Shown here: positions 11,512-26,587 of the stretch, one piece after another
How the letters are laid out: every line of letters begins with the position of its first letter
How positions within the stretch are numbered: the first letter of the stretch is position 1
NCBI GenBank assembly: GCA_010015805.1
Contig: ML978127.1
Coordinates: 1,302,001-1,366,000 of the forward strand
Reading direction: 5' to 3'
From: Rhizodiscina lignyota
Lineage: Eukaryota
Length of the DNA stretch: 64,000 nucleotides
Notes under the pieces: model-generated
Told to the model about the DNA's origin: nothing
The model's database searches: none
The model's input: only the letters and a program-made list of their open reading frames with translations
Program-made: the position numbers and the translations under genes

Positions 11512-14500
11512 TTTTGGAAGAGCTTGGCACTCCTGGAGCGGGTACCTGCGTCAGCCACGAGGACATTCTGGAGTTCGGCAAGCCTTACCGATCGATGGTT
11601 GTTCTGGATACAGGCCTTCGCCGGTTATGATTGGCTACCGTTGTAGACCCTATGCATTGATCAGCCCTGCCGTTTGATGAACCACCCTGTAGGGCAGGCC
11701 TTACTCGACGACAATGACAGTTGGTACACAAGTGTTGTACTGATGTACAATGTGTATACCAAATGAAAGAGGAAGCTTGGATGAGGGAAGAGAGAGCAAG
11801 AGGTCTGCCTTTGTGGAGACAAGAGTTTGATGTTTGGAAATGAAAACTTGTGGTCGATGCTGTCCTGGAAATCTCTTCCATCAGCGCCATCTACGGCGGT
11901 ATTTATGCTCGAAAGGCTGGCGCTTCGTGCCGCTATCGTCTGGTCACCTCACTTCCATTTCTGGCTCAACACGGACGTCGTCGTCGGCCCACCATACCGG
12001 CATACTCAGACATGCAACCTGATAGCCAACAAAACCTCCTCGATCCATCAATCCATGGCGTCTCCACGGCGAAAATGTCGCACGCGCTATCTGCAATGGC
12101 ACCTTAGGCCGTCTCCGGCGCTCACTACTGCAAAGACATTTCACATCCGCATAGGATCACCGCCATCCAGCGGTTCTAGCCGTGGCCTTTGGTCCTGTGG
12201 GGCCGACTCGCCTCCCCTCACTATCCATGTCGAAGATTGCTAATCGCCTGACTCTTGTGGTTTCGTGTCCGGCCGATGCTTTTTGTTCGAATCGCTGAGG
12301 GCTCTCGCAGCCGGAGTTGAAGAGAGGTCGGGAGTACGCATATCAGTCACATGACTACGTGCGCCCACTGAAGCGAGACGTTTCCCGCTATTCGTTGGCG
12401 AGTTCAGACCTTCTTATTGGGTACCGTCAATAGCTAGGTTTCTCATATTGTTGACAACAAACGTTTTGCCGTTCGGCACCAACGCCGTCCGATGTCGTTT
12501 CATGCCAATCTCCTAAAGCTCCCCTCATTTGTCAGTCTTCGCAGAGCCTCATTTTCAGCGCTTTTCTCAATCCCTTTTGCTAATTGAACACCTTCCAGCG
12601 TTGTACTCGATCCCTCAGCCGAATCAACTTACAACGACTTGCCAATCCACGGCGCCAAGCCGTCTCGCGAATCCCGATGAAGTCTGATCCCAGCTGATGA
12701 GCATAGGTATCGCCAACACGAGTGGAACGATACTCCCTGGTTGGCCTTACCTCATCTGCCTCGATGCCTGATACTCCGCCCTAAGCCGTGGCCACTCCCT
12801 TCTCCCTGTATCTGCATGGTCCGAGCCGAAACTAACCAGTCACCTTATCTATCCCGTCTGCAAGGCCAACTAGATGTAACTCCACTTGGTCATAGGATGG
12901 TGCCGTTCTCCACCATTGGGCGCTGCCATGCATGAAACGAGCGGGCCGCTGGGGGCAAATTTTCTCACCTGATTGACATCCCGTCTGCTCGGTCCATTCT
13001 TCCCGTAATTGCAACCTCTTGCATGTTCTAGTCAATGCGGGCTGACAGTGTCTGGCCTCGATAACAAATAGTGCTGGGTCTTATGCATCGAATCCCTCGA
13101 GGCCGCGGATCTGTGCAATCATCTAGGGTGGATGATACACTAGGCTCACCGGATCACACCCTATCGGAGATCCTCTGACGTGGCGAGCGCGGTATGGTTG
13201 ATCTGTGACGAAGCACCTTTGCGGGGTTTCATCAAATTTTCGCGTGGAATTGGCATACAGAAGCTGTTGGGCCGTCTACGACTTTCACAGCCCCCCTGAC
13301 TCGCCCGGCATGTTTCGGCGTCTACGAGCAATTGGGCTTCGCAATCCGCTTTATTCTGATGTGATCAGAAGCGCTGTAGGCTTTCCTGACCGGTCACACT
13401 GGATCCTGGAGCTTCCATCGCTTGACAAACGTGGAGTGGCATAAAGATTGGCATCATGGTGGCGAGTTCTACATGCATCCTTCATGCGCATAGCCGTGCC
13501 ATGCTGTCATACCTCCGGAAGCACCAAGTAAGGCAAGTACAGATACGTTTGCCTGCTTCAACCATGTCAATGTCTCTTTTCTTGCAAGCGCAATTGCTTT
13601 TAAGACGTGGTTCGTCGGAAATTGGGGTGGTTGGTTGAGGCCCGACGTTGTCGATGAGCGCAGCATCGCCTCTGCGACGCCTGCATAATAAGCAGGCCCT
13701 CCCCCAACTTGGACTAGGGTTTTTGTAAACAAAACATCAATCCCACAGGTGGAGCACAGATCCCCCGCCTCTCCAGGACAATTGCTTCGTGTACAAGGTT
13801 CACATTTGGCCTCAATGTGCTTTTTTGCCGCGTGTAATACGCAAATGTTGCCCGCTGGATATTTGCGGCCACGAGCGTGGCCTTGAGTCGACGTCAAATT
13901 TGCCTACCTGCAAGCGCGCCTGGCCCTGGTAGTCAATTCAATCATGTGAATGTTAGGCGATGTGAGCTGGTGAGCGGGAGTGAGCGTAGGCCCCAGCTGT
14001 CACTCTCCCGCGATGGGCGGGTACATGGAGTTTTGAGGGCGTGAGCGGGAGCGAGGGTAAATGGGACTACCGCTCTCAGCATGAAGACCATCTGCCTTGC
14101 CTGAGCCGATCTTCTGTTTGGTCCTTCGGCCTTATTCATGCTGATAGGTGCGCGGGATAATAGCCAATGGCAGGAGGGTTGGGCTGCAGAAGCGGGGATG
14201 AGTTTCGGGCAGCGCAACGGAGTAGGAAGGGGTATCCATGCTGAGCTTGCCCTGTTTGCTTACGCCTGATTGGTCAATCGCTGCCAATTGTGTCCGCAGT
14301 TCTGCTGCATGGCTGAAGCTCTAAGTATTAGCATGTGGTAGTACCCATTTGCTGGGACACAGCATCGATGATCCGGCGGCCGATACCAGAGAACATCATG
14401 GTCTCAAGGGAAGATAGCCAAAGGTGAAGGGAATAAAAAGTCAATTTTGGCAGCGACTAACAGCCAGATATTCTGACAGCTGTAAAGATAAGCTGGCCAG

Positions 14501-15841
14501 AGTGAGGGCCGCTAGTAGGCTTCTGGCCATTTCTGACCATTATTCCTCTTCGGCATCCTCAACCCGCTTCGTGCAAGATATCGTCAAGTAAAAGAAAAAG
14601 AAAATCCCACGCCTGCGAGCTAGGGCGAGTCCGTGGTCTCCCGCAGCCTCACTCTAAGCCCCACCGGTGCGACCTCTCCGCTAAGATGCACAGTGCCTCC
14701 AACTACTCACCGGGATCTGTGAGCAGCCAGGAGCGAGACTGGCCTCCTGTGGCTCTCAAGGACATCCGCTTCTGCCGCCTTTCCTGGGCAGTGGCAAGGG
14801 CCTGTACGCTGACTCGAGGGAAATGTTGGCAAATGTTCACGTATCATCTTCTTAATGTCAAACATGACGAACCATCCCTTGTCTGGATGTACCAGAGACA
14901 GGGCACTGTCAACCTCTTTCTCATCTCTTTTGCTTCTCGCAAGAGTGCCAGAGCCATGCGTAGCTCCGAGAGGCAGCGTCGCCGAGATAAAAGCGGTGAG
15001 CGGAGTATAGGGCGTCGTTCAGGTCATGGCCACGAGGACACGTAGGGACTGAAAGAATGCCGACGAGGATCGGAGAGAAGTTGAAGCTACCACTTAGCAC
15101 GCAATAACCGGACGCCATGCCGAACCGAGGTCGGACGCGGTCCGTAAAATCACATTTGAACAATGCTGAATTGAGCGAGGGTATTATTGTCACCGAATTG
15201 TAGCGCAACGAACGGCGGTCGATGAGCAGACGTCCCAGCTCTCATACATCCACAGGAAAGATATCGCCATGAACTTAATGGCAGACAAAAGATTCGAGAG
15301 AAAGTTGATGCAGACTTTTGACGCGTCTCGCGAGCTGCGGGAGTGGCAAACCTTCCGATTCGCCTGCGACTCCTATATGTTCTCTGAAATATCAAATGAA
15401 TGAAATGTTTCGCCGTCCACAATTACCATTGGACGTCGTTCGTCAAATTCGGGCGAATTACCGGGCCGCAGCAGCACTATTTACTCACGTGATCAGGCAC
15501 GTGCAATAAAAGTGGGACCTCGAAAATTTCCATCTCATTTCGGGCATGAGGTCCATCCAGACCACGACGCTCCTTGGAGTCGATTATGTGTATGTTTGCT
15601 TCCATGTTCAATACATGCCTTGCTCCCATAATGACGTTATAAATCCCCAGGCTCTCTGGACAGTCTGCATACGAAGTAGGAGTTCAGCTGTCATCAAAAC
15701 ATCGCGCAGGTTTCATGCAGCTCAAGGAGGCTGTGTCGTGCAGCCACAGCCACGGTAGGTTATTCATTGAACATATGGTGCGATGCTTTCCTAGATGTCT
15801 TTTACTTTCAAAAATTTGTCAAGATCTGAAGTGTCGACTCT

Positions 15842-17863
15842 ATGGACTATCGCTCCAGATTATACAACAAACCGCGTTGCGTCAATCGGGACTGGTTGCG
15901 GGCGGAGAAGACTCTTGGTCGGTCTCAGAATACGTTGCCGTCATTTAAACAATCACCAACGCGATGGGATAGCCGTTCGCGAGTCTCGAAATCACGACAA
16001 TGGAGCAGCAGGCGCAGCGTTCTCGAAGAGAAGGATCCTCTTAGGTGTTCTTCCACTCAAAACCGCAACTCCGACCCCATTATTGAGGTTGCTCGCAATC
16101 CCGACCTTAGTTGGCATGGAATCGACCTATCACACTCCTATCATATGCTCAAAACGTGCTGGCATACACACACGAGATGCGCAAAGACTTACCTTAATGC
16201 ACCAGGAAGCCATAACGACGAAATACTTCTCTTAGACGTCCACGACTTATGTCTCGTCCAAAACCGTCTGAGTTGCTCATATCTTACTCTCAGTTATGTA
16301 TGGGGTGGGACGGCACAATTTGAGACGACACGCGAAAACTTCATCGACTTGCAACGGCCTGGCGCAATCGCTGAACACTTTGATCTGATCCCACAGGTCA
16401 TCAAGGACGGCATAGAGGTGACAAGACTACTCGGCGAGAGATTTCTTTGGGTCGACCGTTTGTCAATTATTCAGGATGACTCTCAATCGAAGCACGATCA
16501 TATCCAGCGGATGGGGCGAATATATCACGGCTGTTTGCTCACTATTGTTGCGCTCGGCGGAAACAAAGCAAGCGATTCGCTGAACTGTTCATCCGAGCAA
16601 TCCAGACCTTTTGTTGACCAGGAAAACATTTCAAGTATTCCGGCATACACGACTTCTCTTCAAATGCGTGTTCTCGGTTCTGCCCATAATGAGCGAGCAT
16701 GGACATTTCAAGAAAGGCTCCTTTCACCTCGTTGCTTGTTCTTTCATGGCAAGGAGCAGAGTCCTTTCTTCGTATGTCGACAAGACTTTGCGTACGACAT
16801 GCCTGGTAAACTCCATAATGGCGACAAGACCATTGATCGGGTCGTTGTGCATAAGGCACATGTTCTCAATCCTCTCGCATCCTACTTTGATAGCTCCAGG
16901 ATGATAACGGATGAGAAACAGCGTCGATTTGAAGCGTTCTCACGATACGATCAACTCGTCAGCGGATACACATCACGGAAACTTTCCTTTTCTTCCGACA
17001 TCCTAAATGCCTTTGTTGGGATCTTGGAAATTCTTGCATATAACCGAAGCTGGGATTATATTATGGGTCTGCCAGTACCTGTGTTATCCTTAGCCCTGCT
17101 ATGGACTCCGTCAAAGTTCACACGTCGTCGCTCAGCAAGGTCCTTTCCTTCATGGTCATGGGTCGGATGGGAGGGACATGTGGATTACCGGCCGCTCCGC
17201 GCTTACGACCTTGCGCAAGACCTGAGATCCACTATCAGGAGCTTTACCTACTACGATGGAAACCTGGATACCATCCGTCGTATTCACTGTGCCGTCCAAC
17301 CACACACCAGACAACATTTAAACCCCTCTCCTACAATGCTTGGGAAACGGACAGTCGACGAATGCTGCATTACGAAGACGCAACTGTTGCAATCCATTCA
17401 GCGACAAAGTCTCAAGGACATTTTGATATTCTCGACCAAATGTGTTTCAGTGTCCGCATTTTCCTACATCAATGGGCCTACTTACACTCAAGACAACTTG
17501 ATATCTTGCCCCAATGACAGACCAGTGCTTCAAATAATGACCTCAAACCGGCACTACTGCGGACTCCTGTATGGTATCAATCTTCAAGGCGACTACTTTG
17601 TGATGGACGAATGCTTCGTACCTCCAAGTGAATGCAGTTTCGTGCTCATGTCGGACTTGTATGGGATGAGGGTCTATGAAGATGAACAGAGTTCCACAGG
17701 AGGCATTGATGAAGCTTACTTTCCTCACGGGCCCTGGTGTGTCCTCAATGTCCTCCTAGTACAGCGGAAGGATAGATTCATGGAAAGGGTCGCCTTTGGC
17801 CAAATTCATGCAGCTGCCTGGGCTGAGGCAGGGCCCAGAGAGAAGAGGATAATGATGTGCTGA
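15842..17863 (+). CDS. Heterokaryon-incompatibility (HET domain, PF06985-type) protein
   Basis: C..H..C upstream motif, YLTLSYVWG, P.VIKDGI.V...LGERFLWVDRLSIIQDD, IQRMGRIY...LLTIVA, RAWTFQERLLSPR, Y..R.L....DILNAF.G, FPSWSWVGW. The true start codon is uncertain. Confidence 0.92.
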   Translation: MDYRSRLYNKPRCVNRDWLRAEKTLGRSQNTLPSFKQSPTRWDSRSRVSKSRQWSSRRSVLEEKDPLRCSSTQNRNSDPIIEVARNPDLSWHGIDLSHSYHMLKTCWHTHTRCAKTYLNAPGSHNDEILLLDVHDLCLVQNRLSCSYLTLSYVWGGTAQFETTRENFIDLQRPGAIAEHFDLIPQVIKDGIEVTRLLGERFLWVDRLSIIQDDSQSKHDHIQRMGRIYHGCLLTIVALGGNKASDSLNCSSEQSRPFVDQENISSIPAYTTSLQMRVLGSAHNERAWTFQERLLSPRCLFFHGKEQSPFFVCRQDFAYDMPGKLHNGDKTIDRVVVHKAHVLNPLASYFDSSRMITDEKQRRFEAFSRYDQLVSGYTSRKLSFSSDILNAFVGILEILAYNRSWDYIMGLPVPVLSLALLWTPSKFTRRRSARSFPSWSWVGWEGHVDYRPLRAYDLAQDLRSTIRSFTYYDGNLDTIRRIHCAVQPHTRQHLNPSPTMLGKRTVDECCITKTQLLQSIQRQSLKDILIFSTKCVSVSAFSYINGPTYTQDNLISCPNDRPVLQIMTSNRHYCGLLYGINLQGDYFVMDECFVPPSECSFVLMSDLYGMRVYEDEQSSTGGIDEAYFPHGPWCVLNVLLVQRKDRFMERVAFGQIHAAAWAEAGPREKRIMMC

Positions 17864-19442
17864 AGAGAATTGGAATTATTGATTGCCCTCGGTGGCGTCG
17901 AGCCACACTTTTTGAGCTGTTGAATTGTACGAAGTTACGCCGAATATGTAGTAACTCTGGATCGGACATGTTCAAGCTTTTACATGCGAAGCTCATCCTT
18001 GCTCTGCTGAGCAGTACTGGTGCGCGAGCTGGCGACCTTGCGGTGTCCAAATGGGCTTCTCCTGAGCAGTGCTTAAAGTGGAACCACATTATGTTAATCA
18101 TGGTTCAACGGGATGGCGATGAACTCTTGAGCTGCAGGATTACTTTGGCGTTCACGAAAGGCAAAAAGTAAGCACCCCATCGATACCAAGCAGAGCTCCG
18201 CTAAGATCCACATCCGCAGAGACGATGGTACAACAGCAGAAGTCCATACAATTGACCAGACACCCATCGAATTTAGTACCAACTGCGTGGTCAGGTGGCT
18301 CCTGATCCAAGCCTTTCGCACAAAGGCCGTTATGCATGAGTTAATCCCTTCACTGGTTTCCGATATGCGAGGCAGGAAGGACGAGCCCAGTCCAGAGCAG
18401 AGATGTCTACAGTGGAAGACCCCAGAGGCCCCAGTTCCGAGGCAAGAAAAGAAAGGCAACACCCGCGGCTTGGAGATGAGCAAGCCGGCGGGAACAGATC
18501 GTGTCTTGGGTGCATTTAGAAAGGCTGCACAAGCTAACGACATGGACCCAAAACTGTTCGTCACACGTGATATTCGGCGAGGCGCGGCACTGGGCGAGGC
18601 ATACGCCGAAGAACCACGCGAAGGCGTCTCTACAGAAGCGGCGGCACGTCTGCTGGACCATAGTGGGAACAGTGGGGACATGACAAGGAAGTACTGCATT
18701 GGGGGCTCCCGTAAAGATACGTTCAACTCGAGGTTAAAGCGGAAAAGAGTTATTGATGAATTTGGCTGGAGGAGAAGTCGAAGCCGACCGAGACGCCGCT
18801 GGCAAATGGGGCTATTAACACAACTTTGAGCAACTCGCGCTCAAGCAACCCGGCCTTGATCGAACCGACCTTGATCGAACCGACCTTGATCGACCCGGCC
18901 TTGATCGATGCGGCAACAGCTGATGCAACTTTGACTGACGAAGCGCCGGCGAACGACGAGAGCGAAATACTACCAGAGGAGTGGAGTGGCATCACAGGCA
19001 CACTTGACGCCCTTGCAGAAGACACCGCAATCTTCTCTGCTGACCTCACCACGTTTTGCACGTATTTCATAGAGATTGCGAATACCGAATTTCACGGGTA
19101 CCCACCGGCCTGACGAGGCACCTCAGGAAGGAGCATGGAATACCTGATATTGCGATGACCGAAAGCCAGACTGCTTTAGCGAACGAGATCACTATATTTG
19201 TTCTGGGCGATGGACTCACTCTCGGCTGGTGGAAACGGTGTCCCGCGCCCATTCCGATGCGATGAGCCAGGATGTGAAAAGAGCTACACCACCAAGTCTA
19301 ATTTGACGGAGCACCACCTCAAAGTTCATGGCGTAAACGATGTCCCACGCCGATTTCGATGCGACGTCAGCGGTTGTAAAAGGAGTACAAAAAGATCCAC
19401 TTCTTGTGGAAGCACCAGAGGGAAAAGCATGGCTTCGAATAA
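17857..19442 (+). pseudogene. Degraded tyrosine-recombinase (Crypton/DUF3435-like) gene with C-terminal C2H2 zinc fingers
   Basis: Intron 18168-18219 joins two ORFs in frame. Motifs in order: TGARAGDL (R, 18025), FTKG (K, 18157), RDIRRGAA (18566-18589), LLDH (H, 18659), TRKY (Y, 18692). Frameshifts near 18765, about 19100-19240 and about 19380. Fingers are CDEPGC..HHLKVH and CDVSGC/KEY..HQREKH. The N-terminus is missing. Confidence 0.75.
18856..18908 (+). repeat. 15-bp tandem repeat (TTGATCGAACCGACC, about 3.5 copies) encoding LIEPT/LIDPA
   Basis: TTGATCGA occurs at 18856, 18871, 18886 and 18901. Confidence 0.95.
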
Positions 19443-19723
19443 ATCTCATGGGTATAGATGGGATTTCGGCCATTGCTGGAGCAGCTACATAATGAGGAAG
19501 TACACATTGACATACAGAAGGCGAGGCAGCCTTATGCGCCGGCATGATGTTTTACATTTAGAGATTTCGTGTTGCTAGAGTGAGTTTAAATATACGAATT
19601 TAATAGTTCTTACTTAGAGCTTTTGGATTACGTAGATATACAGCGGAATATATATTCTGTACGTCAGGGAATTTTAAACTCTTGGTGTAAAATGCTATAT
19701 ATTACAGACCTTAACATAATCGT

Positions 19724-19750
19724 CCCCCCCCCCCCCCCCCCCCCCCCCCC
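19724..19750. repeat. Poly-C homopolymer (27 nt)
   Basis: Directly visible. Confidence 0.97.
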
Positions 19751-20091
19751 GGTTCGCTAAGTAAGCATCGTTGTGGCGGAATTATCTTCGAAGGGTCGGA
19801 TCACGTTAGCGCACTCCACTTTTTTTTGGCCCACGTTTTTCAGGATTGGATTTTATCTTATCCTCCCTCTGGCCCCTCAGGCGCGCTTTTCACCTTCTTC
19901 CTACGACTTTTCCTTTCGTTTGGGTACTCTCCACTCATCTTGCATAGACTTGTTTCATTAGAAGATTTACAAACGGTGTCCGGCCGTTGAAGGACACTTC
20001 GCTGTGCTTCGCAGCTGCCCAACCCTTTCAGGCGCCACACACTCATTCCATCCTTCAACCACACTTCTTTCCCCCATCTGTTCCTCTGAGA

Positions 20092-23000
20092 ATGCCACAT
20101 ATCGACTCACCTCCGATGGCATCTGTTGTTGCGATCAAGTCCGGTCCCGCGTCCGCCCCAGCGCCAGCACAAGAAGATGTTAAGGCGATTCTCTCGCTAA
20201 TCCTCACGACGGAGAAGGCCCAGGACTCGTTAGACGCATCATACAACATCACACAACTTCTACTGGATTCAGTAGGGTATCGAGGATTCAAACAATATGG
20301 GGTGTTCGAACCAATACGTAAGGCTGCAGCGGACAAGAAGAGTGGTGCAAAACGCGAAGGTGCCATGTTCGCGCTTGGTGCATTCTTCGAGCGTTTCCCA
20401 CCGAAGCAGCCGATCAGCGAAGTTGTGTTTATGGTACAAGAAGAAGGACTCGTTGGGATAGCACTGGACGCATTGTCGGATAAGGGCTCGTCTGTACGAG
20501 ACTCTGCGCAATACGCCCTGAATTCATTGTTCGACAATCTCAAGCCAGAGGCGCTCGTCTTTGGGCTCCTGCCAGCCCTGATGGCTTATTTGAAGAAGGG
20601 CACAGGCAAGTGGCAGGGTGCTGTCGGCGCATATGCGCTTATCGCCAAAATGGCAGACAAGGCAAAGTTGGGCAATGGCACCAGAGAGGAGGAGCATTTC
20701 AAGGATGTGCTGCGTGAGGCGATGGGAAAGCGATTGGAGGGTCTGATCCCAATCGTGGAGAGTGGCATGCACGACCTGAAGGCCGAAGTTACAAAACAGG
20801 CGATCAAGACGATGAACTCTGTTACAAACCTACTTCAGAACGACGACGTGGCTCCGCGGATACCTCTGCTTATCAAGTACATGGAGAAGCCTTCTACAGA
20901 AAGTTTGCAGAAGGCTATCCATGCCCTTTCGCAAACGACTTTTGTCGCCGTCGTCACCTCTCCTGTCCTCGCACTCCTCACACCACCTCTCGAACGATCG
21001 CTTAATACACCGACGACTTCACAAGAAGTCCTTCGACAGACTGTCGTGGTCGTAGAGAACCTCACAAAACTTGTACACGATCCCGTTGAAGCGCGAACCT
21101 TCCTACCGAAACTCAAACCTGGTGTTAAGGCTGTGATGGAGCGGGCATCACTTCCTGAAGTCCGAGAGATAGCAACTCGAGCATACAATGTGCTGAACAA
21201 GGCAATGGGTGAAGATACAAACGGAGAAACGAATGCAGCGATTGCACGCACAACGCCAGAAGACGTGCTGGCTGTTTTGGAGAAAAATCTCAAGCTTGAT
21301 GCTGGTACGGCAAAGGCTCCGGAGACTAGCCTTACCAAGACATACATCAGCCAAATGGTTGCGGAGGATGTCAACCAGAGACAGCTGGAAAGAATCAAAC
21401 TCTGCGTTACTCCATATCTCAAATCTTTGGTCCCGGAGGCTACTGCGATCGAGATTGGAGATGCTATGCATCAGCATTTCGTCGAAGAGGACAATCGCAA
21501 GTTCGGTGCGCCTATTAAAGAAGATGATGGAGAAGTCGAAATTGTCAATGCGACTTTCTCCCTCGGCTACGGAGGAATGCTATTGCTTTCCCACACCAAT
21601 CTCAGACTCCTGAAAGGACACAGATATGGGCTCTGTGGTCGTAATGGAGCCGGAAAATCCACGCTCATGCGAAGTATCTCTGAGAATAAGCTTGAAGGGT
21701 TTCCGCCGCCAGAGGAAGTCAAAACTTGTTTCGTGGAGCACAACCAAGGCGAAGATGCCGATCTCAGTATTCTGGAATACATTTCCAAAGATCCCAGGTT
21801 CGCATCCGAAAGTACCGAACGTGTCTCATCTGTTCTCGAGGAAGTCGGCTTCACGTCTGGTCCAGAGGGTCGCCAATCTCACAAAGTCGGCTCGTTGTCC
21901 GGTGGATGGAAGATGAAGCTTGCGCTTGCTCGAGCGATGTTGATGCGCGCCGATGTGCTCCTTCTGGACGAACCTACTAACCATCTCGATGTCGGAAATG
22001 TTAAATGGCTGCAGGAGTATCTCAAGAAGCACACGGAAATCACAAGTCTGATCGTCAGTCACGATTCCGGCTTTCTTGATGATGTCTGCACCGACATCTA
22101 CCACTACGAGCAGAAGAAGCTTGTTCTCTACAGAGGCAACTTGGCTGCTTTGGTCAAAGTCAAACCTGAAGCCAAGACTTATTACACGCTTTCGGCATCA
22201 AACGTACAGTTTAAATTCCCGCCGCCAGGTATCTTGACCGGCGTGAAGTCCAACACCAGAGCGATTTTGAGAATGACCAATTGCACTTTCACATATCCAA
22301 AGGCCAGTAAACCGTCACTGTACGACGTCACTTGCGCTCTCACCCTGTCTTCGCGAGTGGCCATCATCGGCGCTAATGGTGCCGGCAAATCCACTCTCAT
22401 CAAAATCTTGACGGGCGAAGTGGTTCCGCAGGAAGGCAAAGTGGAGAAGCACCCTAATCTTCGAATTGGATATATCAAACAGCACGCTCTCGAGCACGTC
22501 GAGATGCACATGGAGAAGACCCCGAATCAATATCTGCAGTGGCGTTACGCAAACGGCGACGATCGGGAAGTGTTGATGAAGCAGACTCGTGTGTTGACCG
22601 ACGAAGATAAGGCTCAAATGGAGAAGAAAATTGATCTTAAAGATGGAAAGGGCGCAAGACAGATCGAGGCGCTCATTGGACGGCAGAAATGGAAGAAGAG
22701 CTTTCAGTACGAAGTCAAGTGGATTGGGTGGCTGCCTAAGTTCAACAGTCAAATCTCGCGCGAGACTCTGTTGGAGCTCGGATTCCAGAAGCTGGTGCAA
22801 GAGTTTGACGACCACGAGGCTTCCCGTGAAGGTTTGGGTTATCGCATCCTGGAGCCAAAGGTCATCTCGAAGCATTTTGAAGACATGGGTATGGATCCTG
22901 AGATTGCGAATCACAATCAGATCTCTGGCTTGTCTGGTGGTCAAAAGGTCAAGGTCGTTATTGCAGGGTGAGTTTCGCTCCTCTCTTTTCGCTCGATTCG

Positions 23001-23516
23001 ACGTCATCCCGGACATTAACAGGCTGACTTCGTTACAGTGCAATGTGGAACAACCCACAAATTCTCGTCCTGGACGAACCTACCAACTTCTTGGATAGAG
23101 ACTCGATGGGTGGCCTTGCTGCCGCAATTCGTGACTTCAAGGGTGGCGTCGTCATGATTTCCCACAACGAAGAGTTTGTCGGCGCACTGTGTCCGGAGCA
23201 ATGGCATGTTGCAGACGGCCGCCTAACGCACAAGGGTCATCTTGCTGTTTCTTTCGACCGTTTCGAGGACAGTAGCCGCGGCCCAAGCACACAAGCGTCT
23301 TCTGTCGTGTCAAGTGCTGTGAACAGCGCCAGCGCCAGCGCGGTCAACTCGGAAGCTGAACAGGGAGAGATGAAGTTCAAATCGAGAAAGAAGAAGAAGT
23401 TGACGAGAGCACAGTTGAAAGAGAGGGAGGTGAGAAGGAGGTTGAGGCATATTGAGTGGTTGAACTCGCCAAAGGGCACGCCGAAACCTGCAGATACGGA
23501 TGATGAGGCTACCTAA
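20092..23516 (+). CDS. NEW1: eEF3-family ABC-F ATPase New1/Elf1 (HEAT repeats, two ABC cassettes, chromo insertion)
   Basis: GRNGAGKST, LSGGWKMK and LLLDEPTNHLD in the first cassette. GANGAGKST, chromo-like IEALIGRQKWKKSFQYEVKW and LSGGQKVK in the second. Intron 22968-23038. The C-terminal tail KKLTRAQLKEREVRRRLRHIEWL.SPKGTPKP is New1/Elf1-type rather than eEF3-type. Confidence 0.9.
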
Positions 23517-24111: not shown

Positions 24112-25128
24112 TTATGCCCATGAGGAGGAAGGCTGAGATGAGGGGAGCACACCAGGCATGCTGGTCGCATGAGCTTTCGATCTATGTTTCTGAAGGTCGC
24201 TTTCTCTTTTGAATCCCATCTTGCCAGTGCGGTTGCACCCCGGAAAGCCACACTCATAGACGCCATCTCCATGTTCTAACCTCATGTGCTGGGAGAATTC
24301 TTTACTGTTCCTGAAGCCTGCCCAACCCTCCGCCTTTGTGTGTCGACAGCCTTTGTAAGAACAGTATTTCTCGAACTCTTCCTTTTCCACCCCATGACAT
24401 CTTTGTATGTGTTGTCGTAGATGATCTTTTCGCTTGAATGCGTCCTCCCCTTGATATTTACGACAGTACTTGCAAGGAAATCGTCTCGATGTATGTGTGG
24501 CACGATGTCGGGAGAGGGAACTGGCAAGATGGTAGGTTCGATCGCATCCTGGTTCTGTACAAGCGAACTGTGCTTGTGAGTCGGATGAAGAGTTGTCATT
24601 GAGATGCACAGCTGCATCATCAGGTGGAGCAGAGGTAGAACCTGGTAAATTTCCAGGTGCCGTATTCTCCACGTCCAGCAGGCCACTCCCATACCATCCC
24701 CCTGACTGGAGACCAGCTTGTGAATACGATATGGAGTTAGCTGACTCATTCGATTGACCTGCAGCCACTTCTGAAATGTTGGGTTGCAAAAAGATATCAG
24801 CGTCTGCGGTGTGCAAGCATCGCAAATGAGGGTCAAAGCCGTCGGTGGCAATCAGGGACTCGATGTCATTGGAAGTGGTGAGTTCTTGTGGTTCCAACGC
24901 AATCTGTCCAGTGGCATGGAGAGCAGCACGCTCAACAAATGTTCCAGTGAATGGATACACAGTTTCCTTGTGTAAGCATGGATTTTGTTCGATCCAAGCT
25001 GGGTCCCCATAGCCAACATCTAATTCTGATGAGTGCCGTTCTGTCGAAGTAGCGGGGATAGAATTGTATTCTCTTTCTGGATGATCCGCACTCGCTCTGT
25101 GCATGGCTATCAACTGGCATTGATGCAA
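24112..25128 (-). CDS. C2H2 zinc-finger transcription factor (four C-terminal fingers)
   Basis: CTEPGC..LSRHRATH, CKYC..F.RKDHLRQHIQRCH, CSYKGC..QHMRLEH, CGFPGC..F.RESDLQKHRSKAH. The 5' end is uncertain; first in-frame ATG is at 25104. Confidence 0.85.
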   Translation of the reverse strand: MHQCQLIAMHRASADHPEREYNSIPATSTERHSSELDVGYGDPAWIEQNPCLHKETVYPFTGTFVERAALHATGQIALEPQELTTSNDIESLIATDGFDPHLRCLHTADADIFLQPNISEVAAGQSNESANSISYSQAGLQSGGWYGSGLLDVENTAPGNLPGSTSAPPDDAAVHLNDNSSSDSQAQFACTEPGCDRTYHLASSLSRHRATHTSRRFPCKYCRKYQGEDAFKRKDHLRQHIQRCHGVEKEEFEKYCSYKGCRHTKAEGWAGFRNSKEFSQHMRLEHGDGVYECGFPGCNRTGKMGFKRESDLQKHRSKAHATSMPGVLPSSQPSSSWA

Positions 25129-26587
25129 GACTCGACCTGATGCGGTCGTCTGCCCATAGGCGGTTTGGATGGATGATTTTGCAGAGCTTTACCAGAAGGG
25201 TGCAAGTAGCGTATCTCAGGTGCAGGTTCTGTACCACGAGAGACTAGAGTTGTGCAAGAGCGACAATGAGAGAGTATTGAAAGATATAGATGACTAGTTT
25301 AGCGGACAACCACACACGATCCGCTAAGGAAGGGATATGCCCCTAAGAGGTTGCTCCTTGTTTATCACATTATGAGATGTCGGTGTGAAACTTAGATAGA
25401 TGCGCACTGAAGCCAGGAAAGCTCGTTACTCGGGTAAGGCTTTGGTGGCATTCGCCCTACGGCGAGGAATCTGATTCCCCTGCGGTGATGTATATATTCA
25501 GACGTCCCTGAACTTTTCTACTTACGCTAGACGCCCTACTACTATACATTTGCCTTAGTTTCTTAAAATGTTCATACCACTCTCTTATAACCTGCCATTT
25601 ATACATCGCTGCGGCGCTCAAGGCCCGGGGAGTAAGAAAAAGAGGCCCGAATCACCTCAACCCGAGGGTCGATCTCGTTGGACAAGGTCAACCATTGCTT
25701 GCCAGAATTGTGATTCAATGAACTGTGGTCCGTCCCCAGGATGCACGATCGTGCAGAGAGATCTATTCCTAGTGAGTATTGCTCTCATTGGCGGATTTTA
25801 TGTGGCAATGGCTTAGGGGCAGTTCAATTTGCTTTCATGATTCCTTTACAAGGCGAGACTTCATGAAGGTGTGGAGACTTCAGTTGCCGTAGGTTCGCTT
25901 CACGTCTCTTTATGTTCGCTTGGCCTTAGAGTCTTCTCCTGCAAGCCTATCGTAGGCAACTGATGCGCCTTTTTCTCATCCCTTAGTCGTGTATGGCTAA
26001 TAATGTTTGCGATAGGTCACAAAGCGGTTTGGACTTTGGAGTAAAATGCTTGGGGCATTAACTAGTGTCTGGTCATCAAGTCGCGGCATCCGCGGCTGCG
26101 AGATTGGCGTCGCCGAAGAGCGCCTAACCAATGCTGGACGTTCACGAAACTCATAAGCAATAATAGCAAGTGAAATCTCACATCCTCTACCGTGGTTTGG
26201 ACCGTGCTGGATTCATTTGCCATGGAAACGGTAAACCGAACGAGGCTCCGACAAGGCTGTGGGTCTGTGGCGCTCCTCCAACCCGTGTGCGGATCCCCTC
26301 CCTGCAGACCGCATTTTCGATCATATCAGGATGTGGGCAGAAGCGACAAAGTATCGGGCAGTTCGACCTATGCGGGAGTCCCATTCAATTGCCCTTCGAG
26401 AGCGCCAGCGAGCACTTTGAAAAAAGCGAAGCCACAAGATCGACTCTCACCTCCTGGGACTCAAGTTGGAGGACAACACGTCCCTTGCTGGCGGAGTTCT
26501 CCAGCATACTTATAAGATCAGCCGTGCGTGGCCCTAAGAGGTTTAGGCTTTAGCGACGCTCTCTGCGAGTTTGACTCCCCGGCAGTA

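Follow-up and report, generated by a model that had tools for sequence, protein, structure and literature searches.

A decayed tyrosine recombinase gene with C2H2 fingers in Rhizodiscina lignyota and related elements at the 3′ end of a 26S ATPase gene

Closest described systems

The subject of this report is a decayed gene for a tyrosine recombinase (YR) with C-terminal C2H2 zinc fingers, found in a 64,000-nucleotide stretch of the Dothideomycete Rhizodiscina lignyota (G000:C7:1302001-1366000 of a 33.4-Mb assembly; hereafter the window), together with the recombinase family to which it leads. Some prophages, integrative and conjugative elements (ICEs) and genomic islands insert at the 3′ end of a gene, which attP then rebuilds. 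Described fungal YR elements include Starships, Cryptons and DIRS/Ngaro. Starship captains are DUF3435 YRs, with core-binding and catalytic domains and the residue order R-K-H-R-H-Y (PMC11162782, PMC10104507). The catalytic Tyr is required in a captain (PMC10104507), and circular intermediates are reported (10.64898/2026.09.21.753150). A conserved gene (5S rDNA) is the insertion site of some Starships, and a zinc finger is present in the Enterprise captain. Cryptons are YR DNA elements that are small, carry a single intron-containing gene and end in short direct repeats, a mark of site-specific recombination, with no terminal inverted repeats (PMC3212892, PMC13465315, PMC9977147); CryptonF is defined by GCR1_C and 6-bp repeats (PMC3212892) and excises cleanly (PMC9977147). 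DIRS/Ngaro elements are defined by a reverse transcriptase (PMC13465315).

We read the window locus as a dead, 5′-truncated copy of a small single-gene YR element of Pezizomycotina, whose relatives would move by the mechanism proposed below (probability about 0.75). That it is a relic of a YR-C2H2 family, taken by itself, is very probable. Decay of the kind seen in the relic is ordinary; its value is the YR family to which it leads, most of which is missing from the main Starship catalogue. Two relatives from metagenomes, one on contig L022 and one spanning contigs L023 and L020, have been mapped at the 3′ end of a 26S ATPase gene, which we take to be RPT6. Their gene-end-restoring integration is the part worth following.

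The family resembles Starship captains in its domains and residue order, in weak DUF3435 similarity and in the short terminal direct repeats of its mapped elements, and one member is catalogued as unassigned clade 3. It differs in a branch length of 5.5 to the R. lignyota captain, with no profile match to two captain exons, in a tandem C2H2 array with a linker motif of its own, and in element size: the mapped elements span 3.9-5.9 kb with no recognised cargo and are not large cargo elements led by a YR. Starship insertions in 5S genes likely disrupt the RNA (PMC11162782), whereas the RPT6 elements restore the coding end of their target. Both mapped elements share the single-gene, intron-containing layout of Cryptons and their short direct repeats without inverted ones. 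Unlike Cryptons, the family has no GCR1_C, DUF3504 or NDC10_II domain; the mapped elements have an 11-12 bp repeat plus a 27-base replacement tail in place of 4-6 bp, and a fixed single-copy gene as target in place of a short dispersed motif. With DIRS/Ngaro the family shares an encoded fungal YR, but the 3.9-kb element has no open reading frame (ORF) for reverse transcriptase or RNase H, and the neighbours in the window are a HET gene and an EF-3-like gene. Prophages, ICEs and islands share with the RPT6 elements a YR, a short core within a conserved gene as the apparent place of crossover, an element-borne 3′ end, a displaced host end and repeated arm-like internal sites. The RPT6 elements differ from them in being eukaryotic and intron-containing, in having no transfer or virion genes, and in carrying C-terminal C2H2 fingers instead of a prophage-type N-terminal arm-binding domain. 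The family fits neither CryptonF nor the usual type of Starship captain; it is a DUF3435-related lineage in which the two mapped elements are small and site-specific.

The decayed gene and its family

An earlier reading of the window from its letters alone (the sequence-only reading) had proposed a cryptic YR-C2H2 gene, broken across frames, as a dead copy of a mobile family that may be poorly described. The gene proves to be real. Three-frame translation places the pieces in separate frames, as described, and the catalytic residues stand in YR order (Table 1), with the Tyr eleven codons past the LLDH His. Within the gene, no GT..AG intron other than the predicted one has a branch point. Its removal fuses FTKGKK with DDGTT and keeps the frame, and a phase-2 intron after FTKGxK is common to both R. 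lignyota paralogs and to the intact relatives L020 and L022; one further candidate lies downstream of the gene (19659-19765). After splicing, an open frame begins at 17881, takes in the catalytic Tyr and closes early with a stop at 18827-18829, and from the first in-frame ATG (17968) the ORF encodes 269 amino acids.

Other details of the earlier reading needed correction. The frameshift near 19380 is real. The one set near 18765 is better placed at about 18772-18797 by alignment, since the paralog on contig C1 reads DEFGWNRRKRS in a single frame, like DEFGWRRSRSR in the window. The tail holds at least four frame changes rather than two, the others lying near 19070 and 19155-19225. Instead of at least two intact fingers and a partial one, a single finger is intact in frame (19258-19329; its Pfam zf-C2H2 match is under the curated cut-off, and the family tail hidden Markov model, HMM, gives 24 bits), the last is broken by the 19380 frameshift, one is a half, and one is tentative. 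The CGT codon at the HxxR His position was read correctly but is a weak hint of decay, as R or K stands there in 13 of the 35 family rows of the tree below; yet the nearest paralog has CAT.

The core-binding domain is missing from the window copy, a loss that the sequence-only reading overlooked. An N-terminal HMM that scores 81-117 bits on L020 and L022 finds nothing across the 64-kb window, and homology begins at about 17890, some 27 bases past the stop of the HET gene, with about 160 N-terminal profile positions gone. Profile searches of the window found no 5′ YR remnant upstream of the HET gene. Repeat-induced point mutation (RIP) was considered as the cause of decay and rejected, the RIP indices being normal. 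The window copy is dead, 5′-truncated and unable to move itself.

A phmmer search with the post-intron exon returns 25 matches at E ≤ 1e-3 among 1.84 billion proteins. One is the protein of the locus itself, 22 are relatives that share its motifs, and two repeat proteins were discarded as noise. Of the new proteins that profile searches returned, 6 of 7 and then 17 of 20 were added. A word-based search with the same exon among longer proteins recovered the locus's own protein alone from 1701 candidates. Named members come from Eurotiomycetes, Sordariomycetes, Dothideomycetes and Leotiomycetes, and by motif and profile similarity the family is widespread in Pezizomycotina and distantly related to DUF3435. 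Full-length members (about 650-1040 amino acids) have an N-terminal helical domain followed by R(A/P/S)GD, KGxK, THDIRRG, LxH and Y. Downstream lie an acidic linker with the IDPxL motif, which recurs in the window copy and across the family, an F..F..IN...GxSRD..C..C..H..C block, and C2H2 fingers. By pattern count, most members have 1-7 fingers; a few, P0020 and P0023 among them, have 0. Public annotations call these proteins "hypothetical" or "C2H2-type domain protein".

In the profile and structure checks that the sequence-only reading proposed, none of five window pieces matches a Pfam YR family at E ≤ 1, DUF3435 included, whereas 10 of the 22 relatives match DUF3435, four of them over the cut-off (17-41 bits, mostly profile positions ~25-230 of 418). 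GCR1_C is found neither in the five pieces nor in the 24 phmmer matches scanned with Pfam; C2H2 fingers take its place. By Atlas features, the window frame adjoins the DUF3435, NDC10_II and phage-integrase clusters. An AlphaFold model of the intact member P0023 (15 sequences; mean predicted local distance difference test score, pLDDT, 66) matches Cre best (Foldseek E 3.5e-7; VIA Z 16.0, root-mean-square deviation 8.3, 291 aligned), followed by XerA, XerH and other integrase structures; the predicted fold of this member is Cre-like. A PDB sequence search with the family profile gave C2H2 proteins throughout the best 60 of 207 matches. The earlier interpretation, a dead copy of a poorly described mobile YR-C2H2 family, is supported by this fold, by the architecture common to a large set of relatives, by three decayed and dispersed R. 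lignyota copies, and by intact relatives bounded by direct repeats.

A tree of 36 catalytic-domain rows (35 family members and one captain as outgroup, with the fragment on contig C9 and several short proteins left out) joins the window copy to the C1 paralog (100/97) and these to P0010 (97/94). A separate clade of 12 rows (100/99) has R or K at the HxxR His position throughout, as do both intact integrated elements. The catalytic Tyr is kept in 33 of the 36 rows and the second His in 35, the outgroup captain counted.

The Starship catalogue mostly misses the family, to judge from the rows listed in PMC11162782. Its supplement gives the Fusarium xylarioides member as "clade03" with no family; seven other family accessions are absent from those rows, six of them from species in the data set. 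The Rhinocladiella member has 1040 codons, and none of the seven YRs listed there for that genome is as long. Neither the family nor an element that targets RPT6 is described in the literature covered, which takes in neither Repbase nor most subscription papers. The text available of a preprint on Tangerine captains makes no mention of C2H2 (10.1101/2025.11.25.690456). For viral contigs the count was 0 of 44, with no RPT6-tail pattern, and a metagenome scan with the P0031 subgroup confirmed 0 of 191 pattern matches.

Integration at the end of RPT6

A metagenome scan with four members of the 12-row clade confirmed 4 of 55 candidates. These represent two elements, each seen twice (L021/L022 and L020/L023), with YRs that are 62% identical. 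Both YR genes lie tail to tail with RPT6 (L022; L020/L023), and this ATPase gene is 96% identical to a gene of R. lignyota. In both relatives the 3′ end of RPT6 is duplicated at the two junctions and the replacement is in frame: each element provides new last codons as a 27-base replacement tail, and the host's own tail is displaced to the far end. The core common to the junctions is GACGACAAGGA(A), a direct repeat of 11-12 bp that flanks the element at the same RPT6 codon in each case, with core-to-core distances of 3917 and 5855 bases. A stop-anchored scan ranks both tail duplications top, with scores of 52 and 54 against backgrounds of at most 27 and 21. Between the two displaced tails, 11 of 39 bases differ, every change being synonymous, and both encode DDKEVSLGKLWK followed by a stop; neutral simulations kept this peptide in 0 of 2,000,000 runs. 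Because the displaced tails differ only synonymously, each was coding after the hosts split, which argues for independent or repeated integration at one site. The tail differences point to independent, prophage-like, site-specific integrations.

The YR gene occupies most of the 3.9-kb L022 element, which has no split or inverted terminal repeats, and no second gene is recognised in the ORF lists of either element, short extra ORFs having stood outside the Pfam scan. Each element carries five AAA(A/T)GTACTT(T) palindromes in matching places: upstream, in both introns, in the coding region and past the stop. Contig L022 has six of them (0.69 expected from shuffles), five inside the element, and L020 has four (0.20 expected), with one more in L023. 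Alternative splicing to the distal RPT6 tail was also considered and rejected, as the proximal core has no GT donor.

The junction structure is the pattern left by one crossover between a tail-carrying circle and the host gene. The intact protein of the family consists of a core-binding domain, a catalytic domain, an acidic linker and, in most members, a C2H2 finger array. In the mechanism that we propose, the element would excise as a circle and re-integrate through a single YR crossover within the GACGACAAGGA core. The circle would carry the last codons and stop of its target, so the essential gene would stay whole, and the element could persist at a site that all hosts have. The probable binding sites of the fingers are the five internal AAA(A/T)GTACTTT palindromes (candidate sequence AAAAGTACTTTT), which would organise or regulate recombination as arm-type sites do. 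Excision, re-integration and finger action are modeled on Starships, CryptonF and phage integrases. Mobility of the att type that restores the gene seems likely for the RPT6 clade. Extension of gene-tail targeting to the window's own lineage is a tentative proposal, with the odds slightly against it.

The core particle is the docking site of the Rpt6 tail, which has an important role in assembling and activating the proteasome (PMC4598862), so a resident element must rebuild the RPT6 end. The RPT6 gene of R. lignyota (C7:1030257-1031165, L024) ends in DDKATSLSKLWK and a stop, nearer to the element-borne tails DDKETSLSKLWK and DDKETSIAKLWK than to the displaced DDKEVSLGKLWK. Transfer of tails between classes is possible, because the element donates a C-terminus and the Dothideomycete ATSLSKLWK is close to the element-borne ETSLSKLWK. 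We see even odds that Pezizomycotina harbor an undescribed set of small, prophage-like, palindrome-directed YR-C2H2 elements that sit in the last codons of essential single-copy genes (RPT6, and other genes according to clade), rebuild the tail themselves, and may have moved proteasome tail variants between fungal classes. If the mechanism holds, a eukaryotic DNA element would integrate prophage-like into an essential protein-coding gene without breaking it, and would swap a functionally important Rpt6 tail. This would explain the persistence of solo YR genes among housekeeping genes, define for a eukaryotic YR an exact target and core that can be tested, and provide fungal genetics with a candidate single-site integrase.

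The RPT6 arrangement might instead descend from a single ancient insertion, domesticated or resident and inherited vertically, whose tails were kept coding by excision and re-insertion or by gene conversion with no spread to new hosts. Both hosts share the site and orientation, named members of the RPT6 clade are all Leotiomycetes, and at fourfold sites the YR (0.58) has diverged about as far as RPT6 (0.67), both values being nearly saturated; the L022 tails are identical over their last 15 bases, as conversion would give. However, a displaced tail that had been non-coding since the host split could not keep its peptide through 11 substitutions, and repeated excision would still require a recombinase active at the core, leaving the mechanism unchanged and the history alone different. 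We consider such a history unlikely and favor independent integration of mobile elements.

The host RPT6 on L020 has an intron near its 3′ end (L020 4639-4778) and that on L022 has none, so the two hosts are well separated. The larger element contains several ~55-base G/C hairpin repeats in both orientations (L023 600-2100 and L020 4074-4155; GGGGGCAAGCCCCC...CTCGCTGCGCTCG) and an AT-rich block with inverted flanks, which account for its extra 2 kb and may be small non-autonomous elements.

Decayed copies, counter-evidence and alternatives

R. lignyota has two further decayed, non-adjacent YR paralogs, on contigs C1 and C9, and the three copies share 33-47% amino-acid identity; an intact copy, which the sequence-only reading proposed to look for, was not found in searches of the genome. 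The C1 copy keeps the same intron and the HxxR His (CAT) and has no fingers. It has no detectable core-binding domain and starts shortly past the stop of another gene, as does the window copy. The C9 copy lies near the contig start, beside BTB-like and NACHT-ankyrin genes; a weak match 3.7 kb past it proved to be noise on inspection. A DNA search of the genome with 17000-20100 returned nothing beyond the locus and 46 matching bases from the sequence that follows a poly-C run.

The ends of these copies, and several other observations, weigh against the reading of the locus as a relic of a gene-tail element. The window copy has lost its 5′ end and its 3′ end is unrecognisable. In the window, C1 and C9 copies, a stop-anchored scan that recovered both RPT6 controls finds no tail duplication, an ATG-anchored scan within 8-12 kb finds nothing, and a blastn search for short direct repeats over 8-12 kb, a weak test that recovered one of two controls, finds no ends; the terminal repeats suggested earlier for the window flanks did not appear. 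The AAA(A/T)GTACTT(T) palindrome is absent from the window and from the surroundings of the C1 and C9 copies. No tRNA gene turned up in 11 sources, and the sole Rfam matches were U2 and RNase P, which lie some 12 kb off the C1 copy and have no partial duplicates. The window copy falls in a sister lineage outside the RPT6 clade, and no element occupies the 1.5 kb downstream of the R. lignyota RPT6, 290 kb away. Independent elements with flanks number two, the second assembled from overlapping contigs L020 and L023 (99.9% over 2473 bases), and neither an empty site nor a circle was seen for them. The RPT6 clade lacks the HxxR His, so that its catalytic activity is putative. The AlphaFold model of the window's post-intron exon alone, half a domain (pLDDT 71), reaches a best VIA Z of 3.1 (XerH 2.6) and has no Foldseek match at E ≤ 1e-3, with HP1 integrase fourth at E 2.0. 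Finally, the F. xylarioides "clade03" member is given as captain of a predicted 50.8-kb element, s06715, and RPT6 is not among the genes annotated there (PMC11162782 supplement).

This last point, the DUF3435 matches and the HET gene abutting the relic are what one would expect if the locus had captained a large Starship with cargo (unassigned clade 3) and were now derelict, with HET as leftover cargo. We find this improbable. The DUF3435 matches of 17-41 bits compare with 117 and 135 bits for two exons of a true R. lignyota captain, and comparison of the family profile with two exons of that captain gives probabilities of 1.4% and 0.5%. The list for R. lignyota in PMC11162782 holds two YRs, both matching the C2 loci described below, and the window locus is not one of them; the absence from the listed rows of six relatives whose species are in the data set also counts against a captain. 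The "cargo" of s06715 is of housekeeping type (SEN1, CHS5, eIF-1A, WASP, ERCC4), with the YR as its second gene. Both mapped elements are under 6 kb, and HET lies upstream of the window YR, in place of its 5′ end. The relic of a small element fits these facts better.

The window copy might also be a domesticated, selected gene for a catalytic-domain-only protein of 269 amino acids, with the finger tail alone dead, which seems very unlikely. The catalytic part is open for ~300 codons, all four frame changes that are certain lie within the final 650 of ~1510 coding bases (p ~0.03, post hoc), the copy has no RIP signature, and Tangerine captains include YRs without a core-binding domain (10.1101/2025.11.25.690456). 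However, homology that starts ~27 bases past the HET stop leaves no room for a promoter of its own, linker and repeat regions are indel-prone, both R. lignyota paralogs are broken, and no ortholog closer than 38% identity was found among 1.84 billion representatives; a dead copy explains the locus better. No RNA data set is listed as containing the locus, a result that is neutral as to expression. One-base frame changes are a typical consensus error, but that the frameshifts are such errors in an intact gene is scarcely credible, because contigs reassembled from one public DNA run (depth 152; possibly the assembly's own source sample) match 14000-19712 with zero differences or gaps, and because an indel error cannot explain the missing core-binding domain.

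Table 1. Features of the decayed gene, its surroundings, the paralogs and the RPT6 junctions (window positions unless a contig is named)
Feature	Position	Strand	Basis or remark
Decayed YR gene with C-terminal C2H2 fingers	17881-19442	+	between HET gene and EF-3-like gene
Pre-intron YR exon remnant	17881-18167	+	end of inter-domain helix; conserved W 17893; catalytic R 18025 (TGARAGD) and K 18157
Phase-2 intron, 52 nt (GTAAGC...GCTAAG...CAG)	18168-18219	+	family-conserved site
Post-intron catalytic exon	18220-18829	+	R-D-I-R 18566-18577 (R 18566 at His position, CGT; R 18575); H 18659; Y 18692
First-frameshift zone	18772-18797	+	net 5-nt difference versus C1 paralog
Acidic linker	18797-19065	+	15-bp tandem repeats 18853-18908 encoding LIEPT/IDPAL
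Half C2H2 finger (C..LTRHLRKEHG), different frame	19066-19145	+	sequence reading; HMM 0.2 bits only
Tentative degenerate finger (CDDRKPDC...H), frame junctions uncertain	19150-19226	+	conjectural
Intact C2H2 finger (FRCDEPGC...HHLKVH)	19252-19329	+	Pfam zf-C2H2 E 1.2e-4; family tail HMM
Last C2H2 finger, frameshift ~19380, stop 19440-19442	19354-19442	+	second copy of 102-bp repeat unit
Intact HET-domain gene, not shown to be part of the element	15830-17863	+	stop abuts truncated YR
EF-3/NEW1-type ABC ATPase host gene	20092-23516	+	Pfam HEAT_EF3, ABC_tran, Chromo
Second decayed copy	G000:C1:1389050-1390100 (L006 4560-5610)		58% DNA identity over 676 bases to window copy
Third decayed copy	G000:C9:21700-22750 (L012)	minus	core-binding region kept; cut off before HxxR box
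L022 proximal RPT6 end, DDKE-TSIAKLWK-stop	L022 12239-12277		sequence reading
L022 distal tail, DDKE-VSLGKLWK-stop	L022 8322-8360	same as gene	3.9 kb off, beyond YR 5′ end
L020 proximal RPT6 end, DDKE-TSLSKLWK-stop	L020 4564-4602		sequence reading
Distal tail of second element, DDKE-VSLGKLWK-stop	L023 570-608		sequence reading

Elsewhere in the R. lignyota genome, RNase P RNA-like (L007 1200-1597) and U2 snRNA (1950-2141) genes stand back to back at a distance of some 12 kb from the C1 copy. Two conventional DUF3435 captains lie at C2:2387223-2389504 and C2:1464178-1465417, one with a stop inside the match; PMC11162782 assigns the C2 captains to families 5 and 2.

In the neighbourhood of the window copy, the public model P0001 (884 amino acids, "HET-domain-containing protein", 15830-18829) is a false fusion of the HET gene and the YR exon that bypasses both the HET stop and the true intron. 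The ABC ATPase gene downstream is of EF-3/NEW1 type. A run of ~25 C at 19724-19749 lies upstream of it, and the sequence that follows has its 46-base match on contig C8. A separate C2H2 protein at 24115-25188 (-) shows weak matches to the family finger arrays and is probably a host transcription factor.

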